48,419 nucleotides of DNA from assembly GCA_027624915.1 (NCBI GenBank), contig JAQBTR010000005.1, positions 1 through 48,419 on the forward strand, read 5' to 3'. The notes under the pieces are model-generated. The model did no database searches, was not told the DNA's origin, and was given only the letters and a program-made list of their open reading frames with translations. This stretch comes from a bacterium (GTDB taxonomy: Bacteria; Patescibacteriota; Minisyncoccia; Ryanbacterales; GWA2-47-10b). How positions within the stretch are numbered: the first letter of the stretch is position 1; every line of letters begins with the position of its first letter. Shown here one piece after another: positions 18,198-25,923 of this stretch. Both the position numbers and the translations under genes were made by a program.

Positions 18198-18277
18198 ATC
18201 TCTATAGTATGTAGGAGATACAAAATTACAAGCTTCAAATATAATAGAAACGTGGTAAAATCCTAGTTACCTCACTC

Positions 18278-18354
18278 GGGCGTATAGCTCAGCTGGTTAG
18301 AGCGTTGCATTGACATTGCAGAGGTCGGAGGTTCGAGCCCCCCTACGCCCACCA
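18278..18354 (+). tRNA. tRNA-Val(GAC) with CCA
   Basis: GGGCGTATAGCTCAGCTGGTTAGAGCGTTGCATT-GAC-ATTGCAGAGGTCGGAGGTTCGAGCCCCCCTACGCCCACCA. Confidence 0.95.
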
Positions 18355-18374
18355 CCCAGGTTTTATTAAATAAA

Positions 18375-18504
18375 TGGTAGAGTTAAAAAGATCTCCCAGA
18401 TCTTTTTAATGTCTCCACCGATGAAGTCAGAGGTTCATGAAGTGCTGGGAGCACTTCATGCGGTTTGCACTCGAGTCGATAGACGAGACCTATAGTTGCA
18501 AACC
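18375..18504 (+). pseudogene. Degenerate tRNA-Val-like copy interrupted by two palindromic inserts
   Basis: TGGTAGAG-[TTAAAAAGATCT CCC AGATCTTTTTAA]-TGTCTCCACCGATGAAGTCAGAGGTT-[CATGAAGTGCT GGG AGCACTTCATG]; colinear with the reverse complement of 23641-23705. Confidence 0.7.
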
Positions 18505-18531
18505 TATCCTAAACTTCTAGGGCGCACACAA

Positions 18532-19587
18532 ATGACTACAAAATCAACAACAATTCTTGCGATTGAAACAAGCTGTGACGAGACTTCCGTTGCGGTTATT
18601 GATTGTAGTGGCACAAAATCAAAACCAAAATATAAACTTCGTTCAAATATTGTCTCCTCGCAGGTAAAACTTCACGAGCAATATGGTGGTGTCGTACCAA
18701 ACTTAGCCAAACGTGAGCATATAAAAAATTTACCAATGGTTCTTAAAACTGCCCTTGGGGAAGCGTCCGTGTTGACACCGGAAAATGAAATTGATGTTAT
18801 CGCGGTAACCGTAGGGCCAGGACTTGAGCCAGCACTTTGGACGGGTATTACGTTTGCACAGGATCTCGCGCAAAAATGGAAAAAGCCGGTTGTAGCTGCA
18901 AACCATATGGAAGGACATCTAGTTACTCCCCTCCTATCAAAATCACAAAAGGAATATGAGTTTCCTGCAATTGCATTATTAGTATCTGGGGGTCATACGC
19001 AACTCGCACTTGTAAAAAACTTTGGGGATTACAAAATTATTGGAGATACAGTAGATGACGCCGCTGGTGAAGCATTCGATAAGGTGGCGCGTATGCTTGA
19101 TCTTGGATATCCAGGTGGACCTATGATTTCAAAACTTGGTAAAACCGGTAACCGATACACATACTCATTTCCACGACCAATGATTAACCACAAAAACTAT
19201 AACTTCAGTTTTTCGGGACTCAAGACAGCGGTCTTGTATACGCTCAGAGACCTTAATGAGAAAAAAGAACTGTATAGTAAAAACGATATTGCAGCGTCCT
19301 TTGAGGATGCTGTCGTAGACGTGCTTATATCAAAAACAATTAAGGCAGTCAGAGAATACGGTGCCAAGACATGTATCCTTGGAGGTGGTGTTGCGGCCAA
19401 CGAGCTTTTGAGAAAAAGATTGACAGCGGCAATCAAGGAGGATATTACGACAAAGCTTTTCTTGCCAGAGGCAGAATTAACTGGAGATAATGCGGCCATG
19501 ATAGGTGCATCTGCTTATTTTCATGTACTCGATGATGATTTTACCGACTGGAAGAAACTAGTCGCAAATGCTACACTCAGCTTGTGA
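18532..19587 (+). CDS. tsaD: tRNA N6-adenosine threonylcarbamoyltransferase
   Basis: ILAIETSCDETS, NHMEGH, LLVSGGHT, DDAAGEAFDK, DNAAMIG; start ATG 18532. Confidence 0.96.
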   Translation: MTTKSTTILAIETSCDETSVAVIDCSGTKSKPKYKLRSNIVSSQVKLHEQYGGVVPNLAKREHIKNLPMVLKTALGEASVLTPENEIDVIAVTVGPGLEPALWTGITFAQDLAQKWKKPVVAANHMEGHLVTPLLSKSQKEYEFPAIALLVSGGHTQLALVKNFGDYKIIGDTVDDAAGEAFDKVARMLDLGYPGGPMISKLGKTGNRYTYSFPRPMINHKNYNFSFSGLKTAVLYTLRDLNEKKELYSKNDIAASFEDAVVDVLISKTIKAVREYGAKTCILGGGVAANELLRKRLTAAIKEDITTKLFLPEAELTGDNAAMIGASAYFHVLDDDFTDWKKLVANATLSL

Positions 19588-21740
19588 AGTTCGAAGATTT
19601 ACCGAAGGCTTACGAGCCAAAAGAGCACGAGGAGGAGATCTATCGAATCTGGGAAAACTCAGGTTTTTTTAATCCTGATGCACTTCCAAACTCAGACAAA
19701 AGAAAACCATTTTCACTCATGATGGCGCCGCCAAATGTTACGGGTCATATACACGTTGGGCATGCAATGGAAAACACAATGTCTGATGTTTTGGTTCGCT
19801 TAAAACGAATGCAAGGATTTAAACCTCTATTCCTCCCTGGGAAGGACCATGCCGGAATTGCCGGGCAACATGTTGTTGAAAAAGAATTAAAGAAAGAGGG
19901 AAAGTCTAGAACAGCCATTGGCCGAGAAAAATTTGTAGAACGAGTGTGGGATTGGATGGACCAATACGGTTCTGATATAGATCAAGAACTAAAACGTCTT
20001 GGTCTTTCGGTGGACTGGTCACGAAAGCGATTCACCATGGATGAAGGATACCAAAAGGCTGTTGAAGAAGTTTTTATTCACTATCACAAGAAGGGATACA
20101 TATATCGTGGGAAGCGCGTAGTTAATTGGTGTACGCGTTGTCAGACAACTATTTCTGACCTTGAGGTTGAATACAAAGAAGAAAAAGGTAATTTTTATGA
20201 AATAAAATACGGACCATTAACTATTGGTACCGTACGACCAGAGACAAAACTTGGTGACACGGCACTCGCCGTACACCCGGACGACGAACGATACAAAGAA
20301 TATCACAACAAAGAGATCGAAATTGAATCTGTAGACAACACAATACCACGTAATCAACCGCCCAAAAAAGCAAAAATAAATCTAATTGTTATCCCCGACG
20401 AGGAGGCAGACCCAGGGTTTGGTACTGGAGTAATTAAGGTAACCCCTGCTCACAGCATGGCTGACTTCGAGATCTACGAGAGACATCCTGAGGTTCCTGT
20501 TACTAAAATCATAGACGAGTTTGGAAAGATGAATGAAAATGCTGGGGCCAGATACCAAGGACTAAAAGTAAATGAGGCCCGTGAACAGATAGTTAAGGAC
20601 TTGGACGAGCTAGGACTTTTGATAAAAACAGAAGAGTACGATCACTCTGTATCTCATTGTGAACGATGTGGAGCCATTATTGAGCCGCTACTGTCTAACC
20701 AATGGTATGTATCCATGAAAGAGCTTGCGGGAGCTGCGACAAAAGCAATCAAAAAAGACAAAATAGAATTTATCCCACCTACACGAAAGAAAGTCATGCT
20801 TGATTGGATAGACAATATTCGTGATTGGAATATTTCTCGACAACTTTGGTGGGGACACAGAATCCCGGCTTGGCACTGTGCTTGCACGGAGCCAGAATGG
20901 CACATTAGCCACACAAAACCAGACACGCCATGCAAAAAGTGTAAAAAAACTTGGAAACAGACCGAGGATGTTCTTGATACATGGTTCTCTTCTGGTCTTT
21001 GGACTTTTGTGACGCTTGGATGGCCAGATAAGACAGAAGACCTAGAAACATTTTATCCTACGGCACTCATATCTAGTGCACGTGAGATTTTCTTTCTTTG
21101 GATTTTTCGTATGATTTTTTCTGGTATCGAATTCATGGGAGAACCTCCATTTAAAGTCATATACACTCACCCAACGATTCTTGATAGCCAAGGGAAAAAA
21201 ATGTCTAAATCAAAGGGTAATGTAGTAGACCCAATGAAGTTAATTGATGAGGTTGGAATTGATGCAACCCGATTTGGTCTTGTATGGCAAGTTATGTCGA
21301 CGCAGGACATTCAATGGTCTCTTGGAGGTTTTCGTACTGGCAAAAAGTTTCTCAACAAATTATGGAATTCTTGGAGGTTCATTTATGGACAGCTTGGGGA
21401 TGGAGAATATACCCTCGAACGTCCAAAAGTAACGCTCGACCATACTAAGAAAATCATTGCTGAATATGACGAAACAACGGGGACAGTTAATAATATGTTA
21501 GAAAAATTGGAATTTGGTGCAGCCCTCCATGAACTATATGATTTTTATTGGCACCATTTTTGCGATATATTCTTAGAGGGGGCCAAAAAGGACGATTCAG
21601 ATGAAACAAGACAAACACTCATATATGTATTTGCTGGTTGTCTCAAACAACTTCATCCATTTATTCCTTTTATAACGGAATATATTTGGAGCCTTGTCCC
21701 CCTACAAAAGAAAACACTTCTCATTGTAGAGGAGGTCTAG
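19584..21740 (+). CDS. valS: Valine--tRNA ligase (short form lacking C-terminal coiled coil)
   Basis: PPNVTG-HVGH, DHAGIA, DWNISRQLWWGH, DVLDTWFSS, KMSKS. Confidence 0.96.
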   Translation: MKFEDLPKAYEPKEHEEEIYRIWENSGFFNPDALPNSDKRKPFSLMMAPPNVTGHIHVGHAMENTMSDVLVRLKRMQGFKPLFLPGKDHAGIAGQHVVEKELKKEGKSRTAIGREKFVERVWDWMDQYGSDIDQELKRLGLSVDWSRKRFTMDEGYQKAVEEVFIHYHKKGYIYRGKRVVNWCTRCQTTISDLEVEYKEEKGNFYEIKYGPLTIGTVRPETKLGDTALAVHPDDERYKEYHNKEIEIESVDNTIPRNQPPKKAKINLIVIPDEEADPGFGTGVIKVTPAHSMADFEIYERHPEVPVTKIIDEFGKMNENAGARYQGLKVNEAREQIVKDLDELGLLIKTEEYDHSVSHCERCGAIIEPLLSNQWYVSMKELAGAATKAIKKDKIEFIPPTRKKVMLDWIDNIRDWNISRQLWWGHRIPAWHCACTEPEWHISHTKPDTPCKKCKKTWKQTEDVLDTWFSSGLWTFVTLGWPDKTEDLETFYPTALISSAREIFFLWIFRMIFSGIEFMGEPPFKVIYTHPTILDSQGKKMSKSKGNVVDPMKLIDEVGIDATRFGLVWQVMSTQDIQWSLGGFRTGKKFLNKLWNSWRFIYGQLGDGEYTLERPKVTLDHTKKIIAEYDETTGTVNNMLEKLEFGAALHELYDFYWHHFCDIFLEGAKKDDSDETRQTLIYVFAGCLKQLHPFIPFITEYIWSLVPLQKKTLLIVEEV

Positions 21741-23332: not shown

Positions 23333-23407
23333 TGGTGCCGCGAGTCAGAATTGAACTGACGACACGACGCTCTTCAGGCGTCTGCTCTACCACTGAGCTA
23401 CCGCGGC
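23333..23407 (-). tRNA. tRNA-Phe(GAA) with CCA
   Basis: GCCGCGGTAGCTCAGTGGTAGAGCAGACGCCT-GAA-GAGCGTCGTGTCGTCAGTTCAATTCTGACTCGCGGCACCA. Confidence 0.95.
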
Positions 23408-23442
23408 ATTTCAATTGTCCCATGAATATAACGCAGGACTCG

Positions 23443-23592
23443 GTCACAAATAATTTTTCTAACGAAAAATTTTCTCAGCCCCGCCTCGCGGTGCTCACCT
23501 TGTTCTCCTTTCGGTCGAACAAACTCGCACAACGCTGCGGCCTTCGAGACCCTCTAATTAAGTAAAGCAGTTTACTTAATTAGAGGGTCTCG
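23443..23592 (-). mobile_element. Putative non-autonomous structured element inserted in the T-loop of a tRNA-Val copy
   Basis: Splits GCAGGACTCG|AACCTGCGACATCTTC with CTCG at both ends; shares GTCACA, CCCCGCCTC, CGGCCTTCRAG and AAAGCAGTTT blocks with 6168-6267. Confidence 0.65.
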
Positions 23593-23736
23593 AACCTGCG
23601 ACATCTTCTTAATCAGTACTTTGTGGGCGATGCAGGACTCGAACCTGCGACATCTTCGGTGTAATCGTTAAAAAGACATAACATGTCTTTTTAACTCCAG
23701 CCAACCCCCCCCACATTCTATTGCTTAAAGTCTTAG

Positions 23737-23810
23737 TGGGCGATGCAGGACTCGAACCTGCGACATCTTCGGTGTAAACGAAGCGCTCTAGCCAACTGAG
23801 CTAATCGCCC
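23737..23810 (-). tRNA. tRNA-Val(TAC), no CCA
   Basis: GGGCGATTAGCTCAGTTGGCTAGAGCGCTTCGTT-TAC-ACCGAAGATGTCGCAGGTTCGAGTCCTGCATCGCCCA. Confidence 0.95.
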
Positions 23811-24034
23811 ACTAAGACTTTAAATCTGTCTGTATGTGGGAGAGCTAATCGCCCACAAAGTACTGATTTTTTGGATGTAATCGTTGAAAAGACATGTTAT
23901 GTCTTTTCAACTCTAGCCAAACAGCTAACCGCCCACGAGACAATCGATAACACATCAAGTTTATATATTGTACATATTTTAGAAGAAAATAAAAGCGCCC
24001 AGTACAAAAACTAGGCGCGAACGAGAAGGGTCAA

Positions 24035-24358
24035 TTAGCGAACTCTCTTATATTGGCGAGGAGGTATTGAATCAGAATAACCAAGCTTTATTGCTAAAAA
24101 TTGAGCACGGGCAAGTTTGGACGTAAAGCGGCGACGTAGGTCTTTGGTGCTACCCAAGCGATCTCTAAAATTACGAAGAACCCCAAGACGCCTGCGAACA
24201 GTATCTTGGTTTGCATCCGTTATTGGAAAGCGAAAAATTGTTTCGAACTCTTTTATTTCGGCGGGTGTGAGCAAGCCTCTCCGAGGCAAAAGGGTTGAAA
24301 CAAGCGTACCTGCACCACTAGAAGTAATGAGGCCAGTAATTCGCTCTGCTATGGTCAT
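24035..24358 (-). CDS. Small highly basic hypothetical protein
   Basis: 107 aa Arg-rich; SD GGAGGTG; own promoter; downstream hairpin about 23991-24018. Confidence 0.7.
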   Translation of the reverse strand: MTIAERITGLITSSGAGTLVSTLLPRRGLLTPAEIKEFETIFRFPITDANQDTVRRRLGVLRNFRDRLGSTKDLRRRFTSKLARAQFLAIKLGYSDSIPPRQYKRVR

Positions 24359-24560: not shown

Positions 24561-25112
24561 TTAGGTGTGCTTGTCAGCGACAACAAATGCCCCATATGAA
24601 TATGGCTTAATAACGGGAGAAAATCCAAATCCTTTTACCATTCCACAAATTCCATCTAAAAGGGTTTTTGTTTGCCCGCCCTCTCCCACATCAAGATGAA
24701 TACACTTAAATTCTATTTTGTCTCCCCAAAACATTTCTTCCCCAAGTTCGTCCTTAATTAAACTTCGAAACTCTTGTGCTAATGTTACAGACAACATTGC
24801 TTCACGCCAAATACGCTCTTTAAAATTAAACGTTCGCTCACGGTGTTTTGTCCAAAAATGAATACCACCATTCCCTATTCGTCTAACCACAACTGCTGTT
24901 ACAAAATTTGTTGTCCCCTTAAGCACAGCGTGCGAATCACTGCCTATAACCACCTCGTATTTAGCATTTGGATATTTTGCTACATATTTTTTTATCTCTG
25001 AGACAACAGAAAAAAGCGAAAGCTCTGTCCCGGCTTCTGTTCTAAAAATTTTATCATCAGATAAGGCTCTGCTGGACGTCGTTTTGTAGTTGATACGATT
25101 CATCAGTAACAA
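24561..25112 (-). CDS. RNase H-like YkuK (DUF458) family protein
   Basis: VVIGSDSH, FVTAVVVRRIGNGG, IHLDVGEGGQT, IKPYSYGAFVVADKHT; start uncertain. Confidence 0.88.
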   Translation of the reverse strand: MLLMNRINYKTTSSRALSDDKIFRTEAGTELSLFSVVSEIKKYVAKYPNAKYEVVIGSDSHAVLKGTTNFVTAVVVRRIGNGGIHFWTKHRERTFNFKERIWREAMLSVTLAQEFRSLIKDELGEEMFWGDKIEFKCIHLDVGEGGQTKTLLDGICGMVKGFGFSPVIKPYSYGAFVVADKHT

Positions 25113-25845
25113 CTACGTTAGCAACTCTAGCCAACTGAAACAAGGCGTGCTTTTGTCGTCCATGACAGTAGCCCTCAAGCGTATCCCTGTTAAGAGTCTG
25201 TATATCAACTGTCTCTTTTTGTTTTGTTTTATCTTTATCCGTATATTCGAGCTCTACTGCTAAGCGCTTATTAAATGCATCCTCAAGAATTTTCTTTAGA
25301 GATGGTGCCGTAACCTTCCAATTAACCATAACTCGCACGCGCCCCCTATCTCTCGTATCTGCCAATACAAAGCCATTCTTTTTTCCAAACTCATACAAAT
25401 CACGGGTTAGTCTAACATCCTGTATACAGTAGTTCTTAACTTTGTCTTTAAGTCCGCGACGCCACCAATCGATCGCCTCTAGCCCTATTCCACTTTTTTG
25501 TGTCCCAAGAGTTGCTCCACACAAATTGTTAAGAGAGACACGGAACCCAAGAGACTTCTCAACCTCCTCCATGAGGTCTAGGTGTGTGAGAGTATCTAGA
25601 TCCTGCTCAACATGTGGCTGCAGTACCGGAAAATCAAAGTGTTTACTGTTAAAACCAATAGCAAGTTGTGAATTTGTCATCAATTCTTCAAGTTTTGGAA
25701 ATTCTTCTTTTTCATATACATAAAAAGAATCGTCAGCATAATTATATACACCGACGACCGTCACCCCTAACATGTGCATATTTTGTTTTCCTCCAACCTC
25801 TCTGAGTTCTTTTTCTGTCTCTATGTCAATTACGAGTGTATTCAT
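25057..25845 (-). CDS. YprB/RNase_H_2-like DEDD exonuclease fused to a C-terminal WYL-like domain
   Basis: DIET, GFNSKHFD, YCIQDV; C-terminal VELEYTD...LEGYCHGRQ...FQLARV; start ATG 25845. Confidence 0.8.
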   Translation of the reverse strand: MNTLVIDIETEKELREVGGKQNMHMLGVTVVGVYNYADDSFYVYEKEEFPKLEELMTNSQLAIGFNSKHFDFPVLQPHVEQDLDTLTHLDLMEEVEKSLGFRVSLNNLCGATLGTQKSGIGLEAIDWWRRGLKDKVKNYCIQDVRLTRDLYEFGKKNGFVLADTRDRGRVRVMVNWKVTAPSLKKILEDAFNKRLAVELEYTDKDKTKQKETVDIQTLNRDTLEGYCHGRQKHALFQLARVANVVVTDESYQLQNDVQQSLI

Positions 25846-25923
25846 GGATATCTTTTTGTACCATGAAATTAACCGCTGGTACATTAATTTTTCCAACAAT
25901 CAAGATAGTGGTACAGTTGTTAT

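Follow-up and report, generated by a model that had tools for sequence, protein, structure and literature searches.

On the forward strand of the 48,419-nucleotide stretch of DNA analysed here (the window), the interval between a functional tRNA-Val(GAC) gene and the start of tsaD is taken up by a pseudo-tRNA (positions 18375–18531) in which a Val-like tRNA sequence is broken up by two perfect hairpins. The window is one contig (C7) of an 839-kb (0.84-Mb) genome of the candidate phyla radiation (CPR)/Patescibacteria type, assembled in 31 contigs (G000), 98.6% complete and carrying a tmRNA and 47 tRNA genes. Further along the window, on the reverse strand, a functional tRNA-Val(TAC) gene sits within nested pseudo-tRNA layers of its own. 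Comparison of these two loci with each other, and with tRNA genes of this and other genomes, suggests that the tRNA look-alike is most likely an insertion scar rather than a regulator of the genes downstream.

The pseudo-tRNA and its counterpart at tRNA-Val(TAC)

The pseudo-tRNA is broken at two places of the tRNA frame, the junction of D-arm and anticodon arm and the T loop after GTTC, as the original prediction, made from the sequence alone, had proposed; the same design is found at Val(TAC). At its 5′ end (18375–18382) the acceptor 5′ strand is absent. Hairpin 1 occupies the place of the anticodon-stem 5′ strand and is bracketed by a run of A and a run of T in the manner of a terminator, and its apex is the flipped form of CTGGGAG, a family motif of hairpins near tRNAs. 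Judged as an intrinsic terminator, it has a 6-bp core with only two G-C pairs, and a consensus terminator scan made no call; hairpins comparable to it separate tRNA and module in other units. In the tRNA-like stretch that follows (18410–18436), TCC stands at the anticodon position where tRNA-Val(TAC) has TAC. As predicted, the second hairpin lies in the T-loop remnant; it has perfect 11-bp arms and begins on the C of GGTTC, and its apex, GC-TGGGA-GC, is the consensus of the module family described below. In the second helix behind it (18462–18504) a 27-nt insert replaces the usual 7-nt loop, and the family loop motif is kept as CGATAGA (18477–18483). The last part, 18507–18531, is not recognisable as tRNA, and no copy of tRNA-Val(GAC) of at least 14 nt occurs within 450 nt. 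Pfam and NCBIfam searches agreed with the prediction that tsaD and valS follow directly; both are neighbours and lie outside the element. A promoter scan placed a promoter-like site at 18234–18261, ahead of tRNA-Val(GAC).

Colinearity with the Val(TAC) locus was borne out by local (Smith-Waterman) alignment of 18355–18510 to the pseudo-copies there, with 1000 dinucleotide shuffles as controls. A 57-nt ungapped match to pseudo-copy C, spanning the GAG before hairpin 1 through GGTTC, scores 39, where shuffled sequences average 14.7, reach 25 at most, and equal the score in 0/1000 cases; the score against pseudo-copy A (23871–23940) was reached by 2 of the 1000. A whole-genome nhmmer search recovered the pseudo-copy C match (E = 8.4e-4), and blastn-short at E ≤ 1 gave no match between the two Val loci. 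Within hairpin 1, the outer 9 bp are identical at both loci, and the inner 3 bp and the loop have been exchanged with pairing kept, just as had been noted. The palindrome loops flip between copies, reading GTT or AAC in the Val(TAC) pseudo-copies and CCC here against GGG elsewhere. The Val(TAC) layers themselves include an exact 42-nt copy of tRNA positions 34–75, held by pseudo-copy C, and a hairpin with 24-bp arms (23543–23594) that follows the T-loop GTTC of the 3′ fragment 23589–23608. The suggestion that the scaffold resembles Val(TAC) more than its neighbour Val(GAC) holds only weakly: identity is 17/21 to the real Val(TAC) gene and 12/14 to Val(GAC), with scores of 22 and 18 that were reached by 6/1000 and 60/1000 shuffles, respectively.

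The part around hairpin 2 behaves differently in such searches, since nhmmer with 18425–18520 against the whole genome found no second match at E ≤ 100, and this part is thus tied to its family by structure models only. The copy had been called independent, a description that has to be given up, because the pseudo-copies at Val(TAC) are homologues of hairpin 1 and its flanks, and hairpin 2 is probably a degenerate member of the module family; both hairpin elements appear to be copies of shared elements rather than parallel hits. The two apices, CTCCCAG and CTGGGAG, are exact reverse complements as stated, and over their apical 17 nt the hairpins show 76% complementarity to each other. The kissing interaction that this had brought to mind is probably not what matters here, given that each apex leaves just 3 nt unpaired and presents, in flipped orientation, a motif common in the family.

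Table 1. Positions of the features discussed, in window coordinates
Feature	Position	Strand	Basis
Functional tRNA-Val(GAC), CCA encoded	18278–18354	+	ARAGORN; Rfam tRNA, 64.7 bits
D-loop/D-stem remnant, TGGTAGAG	18375–18382	+	Aligned to the Val(TAC) pseudo-copies A and C
Hairpin 1 (P1 type), perfect 12-bp arms, loop CCC	18383–18409	+	Repeat search; homology to 23667–23695 and 23883–23911; folds
tRNA-Val-like stretch: anticodon loop, variable region, T-stem 5′ strand, T-loop GTTC	18410–18436	+	Ungapped alignment to pseudo-copy C and to the real Val(TAC)
Hairpin 2, putative "hpA" helix of a T-loop module, perfect 11-bp arms, loop GGG	18436–18460	+	Repeat search; covariance models R1 and R2; family alignments
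GCGG linker and second module helix, GGTTTGCA (18462–18469) paired with TGCAAACC (18497–18504)	18461–18506	+	R1 and R2 matches; folds
Decayed remainder at the site of the T-loop 3′ half and the 3′ strands of T stem and acceptor; continues up to the start of tsaD	18507–18531	+	Sequence; no tRNA-Val(GAC) copy
tsaD	18532–19587	+	Pfam TsaD, 293 bits
valS	19584–21740	+	NCBIfam valS, 830–874 bits, exceeding cut-offs
Nested pseudo-tRNA layers around functional tRNA-Val(TAC)	23433–23940	-	Repeat and tRNA-fragment searches
3′ fragment of tRNA-Val(TAC); resumes at 23433–23442	23589–23608	-	tRNA-fragment searches
Pseudo-copy C, hairpin 23667–23695	23619–23716	-	Repeat and alignment searches
Functional tRNA-Val(TAC)	23736–23810	-	ARAGORN
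5′ fragment of tRNA-Val(TAC)	23842–23860	-	tRNA-fragment searches
Pseudo-copy A, hairpin 23883–23911	23871–23940	-	Repeat and alignment searches

A family of modules behind tRNA genes

The locus is no peculiarity of tsaD-valS: besides beating its shuffled controls, the alignment has counterparts at other tRNAs. BLAST of the 47 tRNAs against the genome returned 14 partial matches outside annotated genes, all 14 of them cognate fragments; 12 are on the same strand and no more than 270 nt from their own gene, and the remaining two lie at contig ends. Among the 43 tRNAs with enough flank for the test, 11 have an exact self-copy of at least 14 nt within 450 nt. Self-copies on the 5′ side stop at the D-loop GG (positions 18–20) and those on the 3′ side start in the T loop, with one Val(TAC) self-copy starting at the anticodon (position 34). 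Between fragment and gene stand perfect hairpins whose stems vary and whose loops recur (CTGGGAG, YGATRGG); YGATRGG loops near tRNAs are found six times on the sense strand and never on the antisense strand. Perfect hairpins with stems of at least 8 bp are enriched about threefold near tRNAs, 56 of 424 falling in the 4.0% of the genome that lies within 400 nt of one. Hairpins that, like hairpin 1, start with GTT and end with AAC occur in 5′ modules at Trp, Asn and Leu(CAG) in this genome, at Tyr in genome G003 and at Asn in genome G004, a wider grouping made by eye only. These last two genomes represent other genera of the same family and display the same designs, G003 at Phe, two Met, Tyr and Gln genes and G004 at Asn and Tyr.

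The T-loop module has a recurrent architecture. It starts with a left arm in which the T loop and the T-stem 3′ strand appear as their reverse complement, ending in GAAC or GAAG, continues with a helix, hpA, of consensus GGAATGC-YGGGR-GCATTCC and a GCGG linker, and then forms a second helix with a YGAWRRG loop; behind it come the remainder of the tRNA, T loop through 3′ end, and sometimes 3–8 nt of trailer. A covariance model built from three copies (R1) identified 29 copies in 11 of the 22 genomes of the order, and a second (R2), built from 34 copies with the present locus left out, identified copies in 21 of 151 sampled genomes of the class, or 19 of 124 genera. A tRNA lies within 250 nt upstream of 53 of the 63 distinct copies, on the same strand in 53/53, and 39 of the 63 are followed by a 14–24-nt exact copy of the upstream tRNA's 3′ part, beginning in the T loop (T54 to A58). 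The tRNAs concerned span 13 amino-acid families. Modules also occur in tandem (loci L107, L177, L196 and L174) and as orphans behind open reading frames (ORFs), for example that of a cytosine methylase. One consensus module pattern had no exact match in a viral contig collection, and no account of such modules in CPR bacteria was found in the literature searched. A descriptor scan combining the D-loop motif with a palindrome was too unspecific and was not used.

At the present locus, R1 matches 18437–18506 with 22.8 bits (E 0.002 genome-wide), and R2, run with filters off over 8 kb, ranks 18429–18513 first with 16.6 bits (E 0.006; runner-up 8.1 bits). Of the module, 18436–18504 still has hpA and its consensus apex, the linker and the second stem; what has decayed is the closing stem together with the 3′ part of the tRNA. 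Hairpin 2 together with 18462–18504 would on these models be a degenerate member of the T-loop module family. The signature of an attachment-site scar, an intact tRNA with a co-oriented fragment, is present for the family and loosely here, where the fragment is Val-like, nearer to Val(TAC), and contains no stretch of at least 14 nt from Val(GAC).

Proposed insertion into tRNA genes and its alternatives

Several results bear on whether these modules work as DNA or as RNA. Between tRNA-Arg(TCG) and tRNA-Lys there is a gap of 19 nt in G004, and in a congeneric genome (G007) the two genes are separated by a unit of 78 nt and a duplicate, 22 nt long, of the tRNA end. Elsewhere in G004 a tRNA 3′ half is followed by a terminator and module, a 434-aa ORF of unassigned family, and a near-identical terminator and module, each module of this cargo array being succeeded by the same 18-nt tRNA end. 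In the module alignment, itself fitted to the model, 97% of cells are paired, 18 of 19 pairs vary on both sides, a result matched by 0/500 shuffles, and double changes affect 161 cells against 34 in shuffles. The inner two helices contain three G-T and nine A-C pairs among ~450, and all helices of two alignments 20 G-T and 16 A-C among ~1060, counts that rest on model-fitted alignments, a fitting that works in favour of standard pairs. In this genome's own tRNA stems G-U stands at 6%; the ARAGORN brackets may exclude A-C by construction, and a Fisher comparison of G-T against A-C with tRNAs was dropped. Module covariation is almost purely Watson-Crick, with non-standard pairs unlike those of an RNA. 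The empty and filled site in one genus, the cargo-bearing version and this near-pure Watson-Crick covariation together argue for DNA insertions that regenerate the tRNA.

We consider 18375–18531 to be, with fair though far from complete confidence, a decayed and displaced copy of tRNA-Val, the attachment-site scar of small hairpin-bearing insertions into tRNA genes. Small non-coding DNAs would target tRNA genes at the anticodon-loop region or in the T loop just after G53-T-T-C56, each bringing its own copy of the displaced part of the tRNA, often with a terminator, such that the gene stays intact. The old tRNA part would be pushed outward beside the structured module, and repeated insertions would stack as layers, yielding both the Val(TAC) nest and the composite scar at 18375–18531. 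Under this scheme hairpin 1 would be the terminator-like palindrome of one unit, and hairpin 2 with 18462–18504 the two-helix core of a T-loop module. The modules would act as DNA rather than RNA, probably as a folded single strand that forms a recombination site, as suggested by the conserved, strictly Watson-Crick three-helix junction, and the enzyme would work in trans. The scar itself is probably functionless at this locus. Hairpin 1 may incidentally attenuate read-through from the tRNA into tsaD-valS, since there is no promoter-like site between the tRNA and tsaD.

Several observations weigh against this interpretation. Family membership of the present copy is weak: a genome-wide R2 search at E ≤ 10 does not list it, and, with its decayed 3′ end, it does not exactly repeat the tRNA-Val(GAC) next to it. 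The bias of the pair counts has been mentioned. Many modules lie only 2–30 nt behind a tRNA without a terminator, and such closely trailing copies may be co-transcribed and have a role as RNA; the loop motifs are held on the tRNA sense strand, which suits RNA as well as single-stranded DNA. No recombinase was found inside or beside the short units, which measure 80–150 bp or hold a single ORF and contain no Pfam recombinase domain. The genome's only tyrosine recombinases are two, encoded away from the units, an Xer-like one on contig C12 and another on C23, and neither a resolvase domain nor a Y1 transposase (RAYT/IS200 type, PF01797; 0 matches) was found in this 98.6%-complete genome. Finally, the one large element that ends in a module could be a chimera at its junction, because its two attachment ends lie on different contigs and the nearest relatives of its recombinase reside in high-G+C phyla.

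That element is an island in G004 (C2:1–31343; L120, L121) of 31 kb and 56–64% G+C in a host of ~45%, encoding two large serine recombinases, two TraG/VirD4-like proteins and NHL-repeat proteins. It stops exactly at a module joined to 20 nt of a tRNA end, and the complete gene for that tRNA stands at the end of another contig. Only this island carries serine recombinases; its recombinase is 55–79% identical to ones in Binatia, Acidobacteriota and Planctomycetota, and in 51 loci related to it, mostly from high-G+C phyla, no module was found within 10 kb at E < 0.5. The link between island and module thus rests on one junction that spans two contigs, as the recombinase's relatives show no module, and the island is either a recent transfer of an integrative and conjugative element into a CPR genome or a chimeric contig.

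The other enzyme candidates fared no better. Both tyrosine recombinases score below the NCBIfam integron-integrase cut-offs, and three GIY-YIG matches in the genome are not near the modules examined. Repetitive extragenic palindromic (REP)/RAYT elements were set aside because the PF01797 transposase was not found in the genome. Contig C23 (3.6 kb; L199) encodes a tyrosine recombinase (154–1077), an IS91-family transposase above its NCBIfam cut-off (1074–2153) and an hsdM-like methyltransferase. The presence of this transposase, together with the GTTC junction, led us to test IS91, which co-occurrence did not support: the transposase (NF033538) is rare in the class, with only two of the 151 genomes and only one of the 21 module-bearing ones having it. 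The junction follows T-loop GTTC, with GAAC or GAAG before the first helix, and carries little weight, GTTC being in every T loop.

The most serious alternative, which we nevertheless regard as unlikely, is that the modules are functional structured RNAs in tRNA precursors, serving processing, stability or quality control; they would be co-transcribed, the duplicated tRNA ends would act as pairing partners, and the pseudo-copy would be the leader of tsaD-valS. All 53 copies with a nearby tRNA are indeed on the tRNA strand, often 2–30 nt behind it; the loop motifs YGGGR and YGAWRRG and the three-helix architecture are class-wide with strong covariation; read-through from tRNA-Val(GAC) is plausible for want of a promoter-like site before tsaD; and the region folds as RNA far better than shuffles do (z −4.2). 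Against such a role, the inner helices have G-U pairs no more often than A-C pairs, far from the level in tRNAs, loops are flipped between copies, a strong terminator parts tRNA from module in many units, and no Rfam family matches. Congeneric genomes moreover differ at the same tRNA, and different genomes carry modules behind different tRNAs. A more specific version of the leader idea, put forward speculatively in the original prediction, would have a tRNA-Val mimic bind valyl-tRNA synthetase or sense charging and so regulate the operon, much as the thrS operator or a T-box does. The position between a tRNA-Val gene and valS, the retained Val-like stretch from anticodon loop to T stem, and one distant metagenome locus (L213) in which a co-oriented tRNA-Val(GAC) and, by eye, a module-like insert precede tsaD would suit it, but we hold it to be very improbable. 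The anticodon position reads TCC, which is not Val, and the anticodon and acceptor stems are lost. Rfam searches with gathering and with relaxed thresholds, covering the window plus ten further module loci, found only tRNA, 5S and a 23S piece, and no T-box. The layout is rarely kept upstream of tsaD relatives: a DNA search in 40 relatives, a collection with no genome of the same genus, matched the tRNA part only, and genes downstream of Val(GAC) differ among relatives. Of 25 metagenome loci encoding TsaD relatives (43–64% identity), three have tRNA-Val(GAC) in the 800 nt upstream, one of them co-oriented; the closest relative (64% identity) has the tRNA on the other strand at a distance of 44 nt, and no pseudo-copy separates the two. 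The same modules also stand behind tRNAs of all 13 amino-acid families with unrelated neighbours, and L213, where the tRNA is followed by a terminator and, by eye, a module-like insert, is more in keeping with a hot spot of insertion than with a leader that has been conserved.

A further possibility, which we rate as distinctly unlikely, involves no transposable module: a free-standing nuclease would have cut the tRNA gene, in homing or otherwise, and repair of the double-strand break by template switching or snap-back synthesis would have made the partial duplications and palindromes. Such footprints would account for the perfection of palindromes with 3–4-nt centres, for a module left arm that is an inverted rather than direct copy of the T loop and T-stem 3′ strand, and for the perfect 11–17-bp inverted repeats that extend the acceptor stem of some functional tRNAs; two small GIY-YIG ORFs in the genome could supply the nuclease. 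Hairpin sequences and loop motifs are shared, however, across four families and beyond, which argues for descent from common elements rather than fresh synthesis wherever they occur. Units with and without cargo have a near-identical end, and no nuclease gene adjoins the modules examined. Chance similarity, or misassembly at the tRNA repeats of a metagenome-assembled genome, is hardly credible, even given 31 contigs, a depth of ~6x in the sole run that holds the assembly, and the tendency of assemblers to break at tRNAs and palindromes. The shuffle controls oppose chance, and the same architecture recurs in dozens of other genomes. An independent assembler reproduced most of both loci from one DNA run, which may be the sample of origin, its contigs being identical over 18400–20764, 23337–23712 and 23781–24100 with 0 differences, pieces that do not span 18311–18399; in this single run with the stretch, of which contigs only were used, there were no joints over modules, and no RNA data set was listed as containing the stretch.

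Returning to insertion as the favoured explanation, its wider form is more tentative, and we would call it possible rather than probable: a class-wide CPR family of integrase-less mini-cassettes, with or without cargo, entering the T, D or anticodon loops of tRNA genes as folded single-stranded DNA and rebuilding the gene. Recognition would proceed through a three-helix junction of the element end and the tRNA's own T-arm, and 5S rRNA genes would perhaps be targets as well. If true, this would be a tRNA-anchored counterpart of integron cassettes or of elements that exploit Xer, and nested pseudo-tRNA layers, this locus included, would be a readable record of serial insertions. tRNA genes are classic landing sites of mobile DNA, and the known elements bring their own integrase. 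In this 0.84-Mb genome a quarter of the tRNA genes, and others in genomes class-wide, have tiny structured inserts that duplicate tRNA ends with no enzyme in cis; if mobile, these would constitute a new minimal type of site-specific element and point to a trans-acting recombinase in organisms with very few such genes. In practice, tRNA look-alikes of this kind mislead tRNA annotation and break assemblies, and the modules account for many of the odd hairpins next to tRNAs in CPR genomes.

Known systems and further observations

The attachment-site scars of tRNA-integrating islands are among the closest published cases (PMC4383910; PMC9897764). In the Islander study (Hudson, Lau and Williams 2015, PMC4383910), crossover subsites include the anticodon loop, the T loop and the 3′ end, mostly 3′ fragments are left, and tandems sometimes occur. 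Islands and prophages in tRNA and tmRNA genes, as that account describes them, likewise leave an intact gene with a co-oriented displaced fragment, the insert restoring the gene (PMC4383910); interruptions at the anticodon-loop and T-loop subsites, tandem arrays and a large excess of 3′ over 5′ fragments are shared as well. The units described here differ in being 80–150 bp or one ORF long without an integrase, in having a conserved three-helix structure with covarying stems beside the displaced fragment, in affecting roughly one tRNA gene in four in a single 0.84-Mb genome, and in the frequency of 5′ fragments with their own module type. What sets the modules apart from known islands is the lack of an integrase in cis together with the conserved Watson-Crick three-helix junction. 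Disruption of an archaeal tRNA gene by a mobile element has been described for tRNA-Thr of Caldiarchaeum (Sugahara et al. 2012, PMC3293823), where a tRNA fragment similarly lies beside a functional rearranged copy after integration in an uncultured lineage. That case involves a 1.8-kb recombinase-encoding element, with introns and split genes as the outcome, in an archaeon, whereas the host here is bacterial, the tRNA is uninterrupted and structured inserts occur in dead copies only.

IS91/ISCR elements (Fauconnier et al. 2026, PMC13181058) insert by GTTC/CTTG, have subterminal palindromes and pass through a single-stranded circular intermediate. Adjacency to GTTC/CTTG (again with GTTC present in every T loop), palindromes at the ends and the absence of a true target duplication would be points in common with that description, and read-through of the kind it reports, capturing flanking DNA, could explain the carried tRNA ends; in contrast, the module's last bases hold no conserved GTTC and no module copy adjoins a transposase. 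The RtT repeats of the E. coli tyrT operon (RF00391) are also repeated structured units behind a tRNA gene with tRNA-like 3′ parts, but their architecture is different, there is no sequence relation, and Rfam gave no match to them in the window or the ten other module loci. Recombination at folded single-strand sites, in which structure is conserved over sequence, is known from the attC sites of integrons and from CTX-type phages, which rely on the Xer recombinases of their host. The small, promoter-less, cassette-like units, their serial addition at one site and the lack of a recombinase in cis are alike; the attC R-box order misfits the hairpins here, the target is a tRNA gene rather than attI or dif, and neither tyrosine recombinase of the genome reaches the integron-integrase cut-offs.

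Some smaller observations concern the same genes. Functional Val-TAC, Lys-TTT and Asn tRNAs are bracketed by perfect 11–17-bp inverted repeats that lengthen the acceptor stem into leader and trailer (23725–23744 with 23804–23823 in the window; C17:88083–88215 and C20:24832–24937 elsewhere in the genome), and tRNA-Val(GAC) of a relative (G026, locus L003) has the same arrangement; these repeats may form a processing stem or represent the termini of an inserted unit. Two neighbouring ORFs on the reverse strand of the window (24561–25899), 0.6 kb from the nested Val(TAC) locus, encode an RNase H-like domain (PF04308) and a 3′-5′ exonuclease-like domain. Behind a 5S rRNA gene (C8:3700–3910, L022) stand a hairpin with the family apex, ATGC-TGGGA-GCAT, and a second copy of ~25 nt of the 5S 3′ region, so that insertions may not be confined to tRNA genes. 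On the same contig, C8:7705–7799 (L021 107–199, reverse strand) matches the Rfam tRNA model with 59.6 bits, has ~20 extra nt in the anticodon loop and is called by ARAGORN as a 95-nt tRNA-Ile(AAT); its neighbours are tRNA-Gly(TCC) and 73 nt of 23S rRNA sequence (model positions 1133–1205), and it may be an interrupted tRNA or belong to tRNAs within a 23S intervening sequence. Lastly, tRNA-Thr(TGT) at C17:42192–42266 has a T-T mismatch in its T stem (GTGGG/CCCTC), and the displaced copy behind it pairs perfectly with the left arm of the module (AGAGGG/CCCTCT), a case that would fit a 3′ part supplied by the inserted unit.

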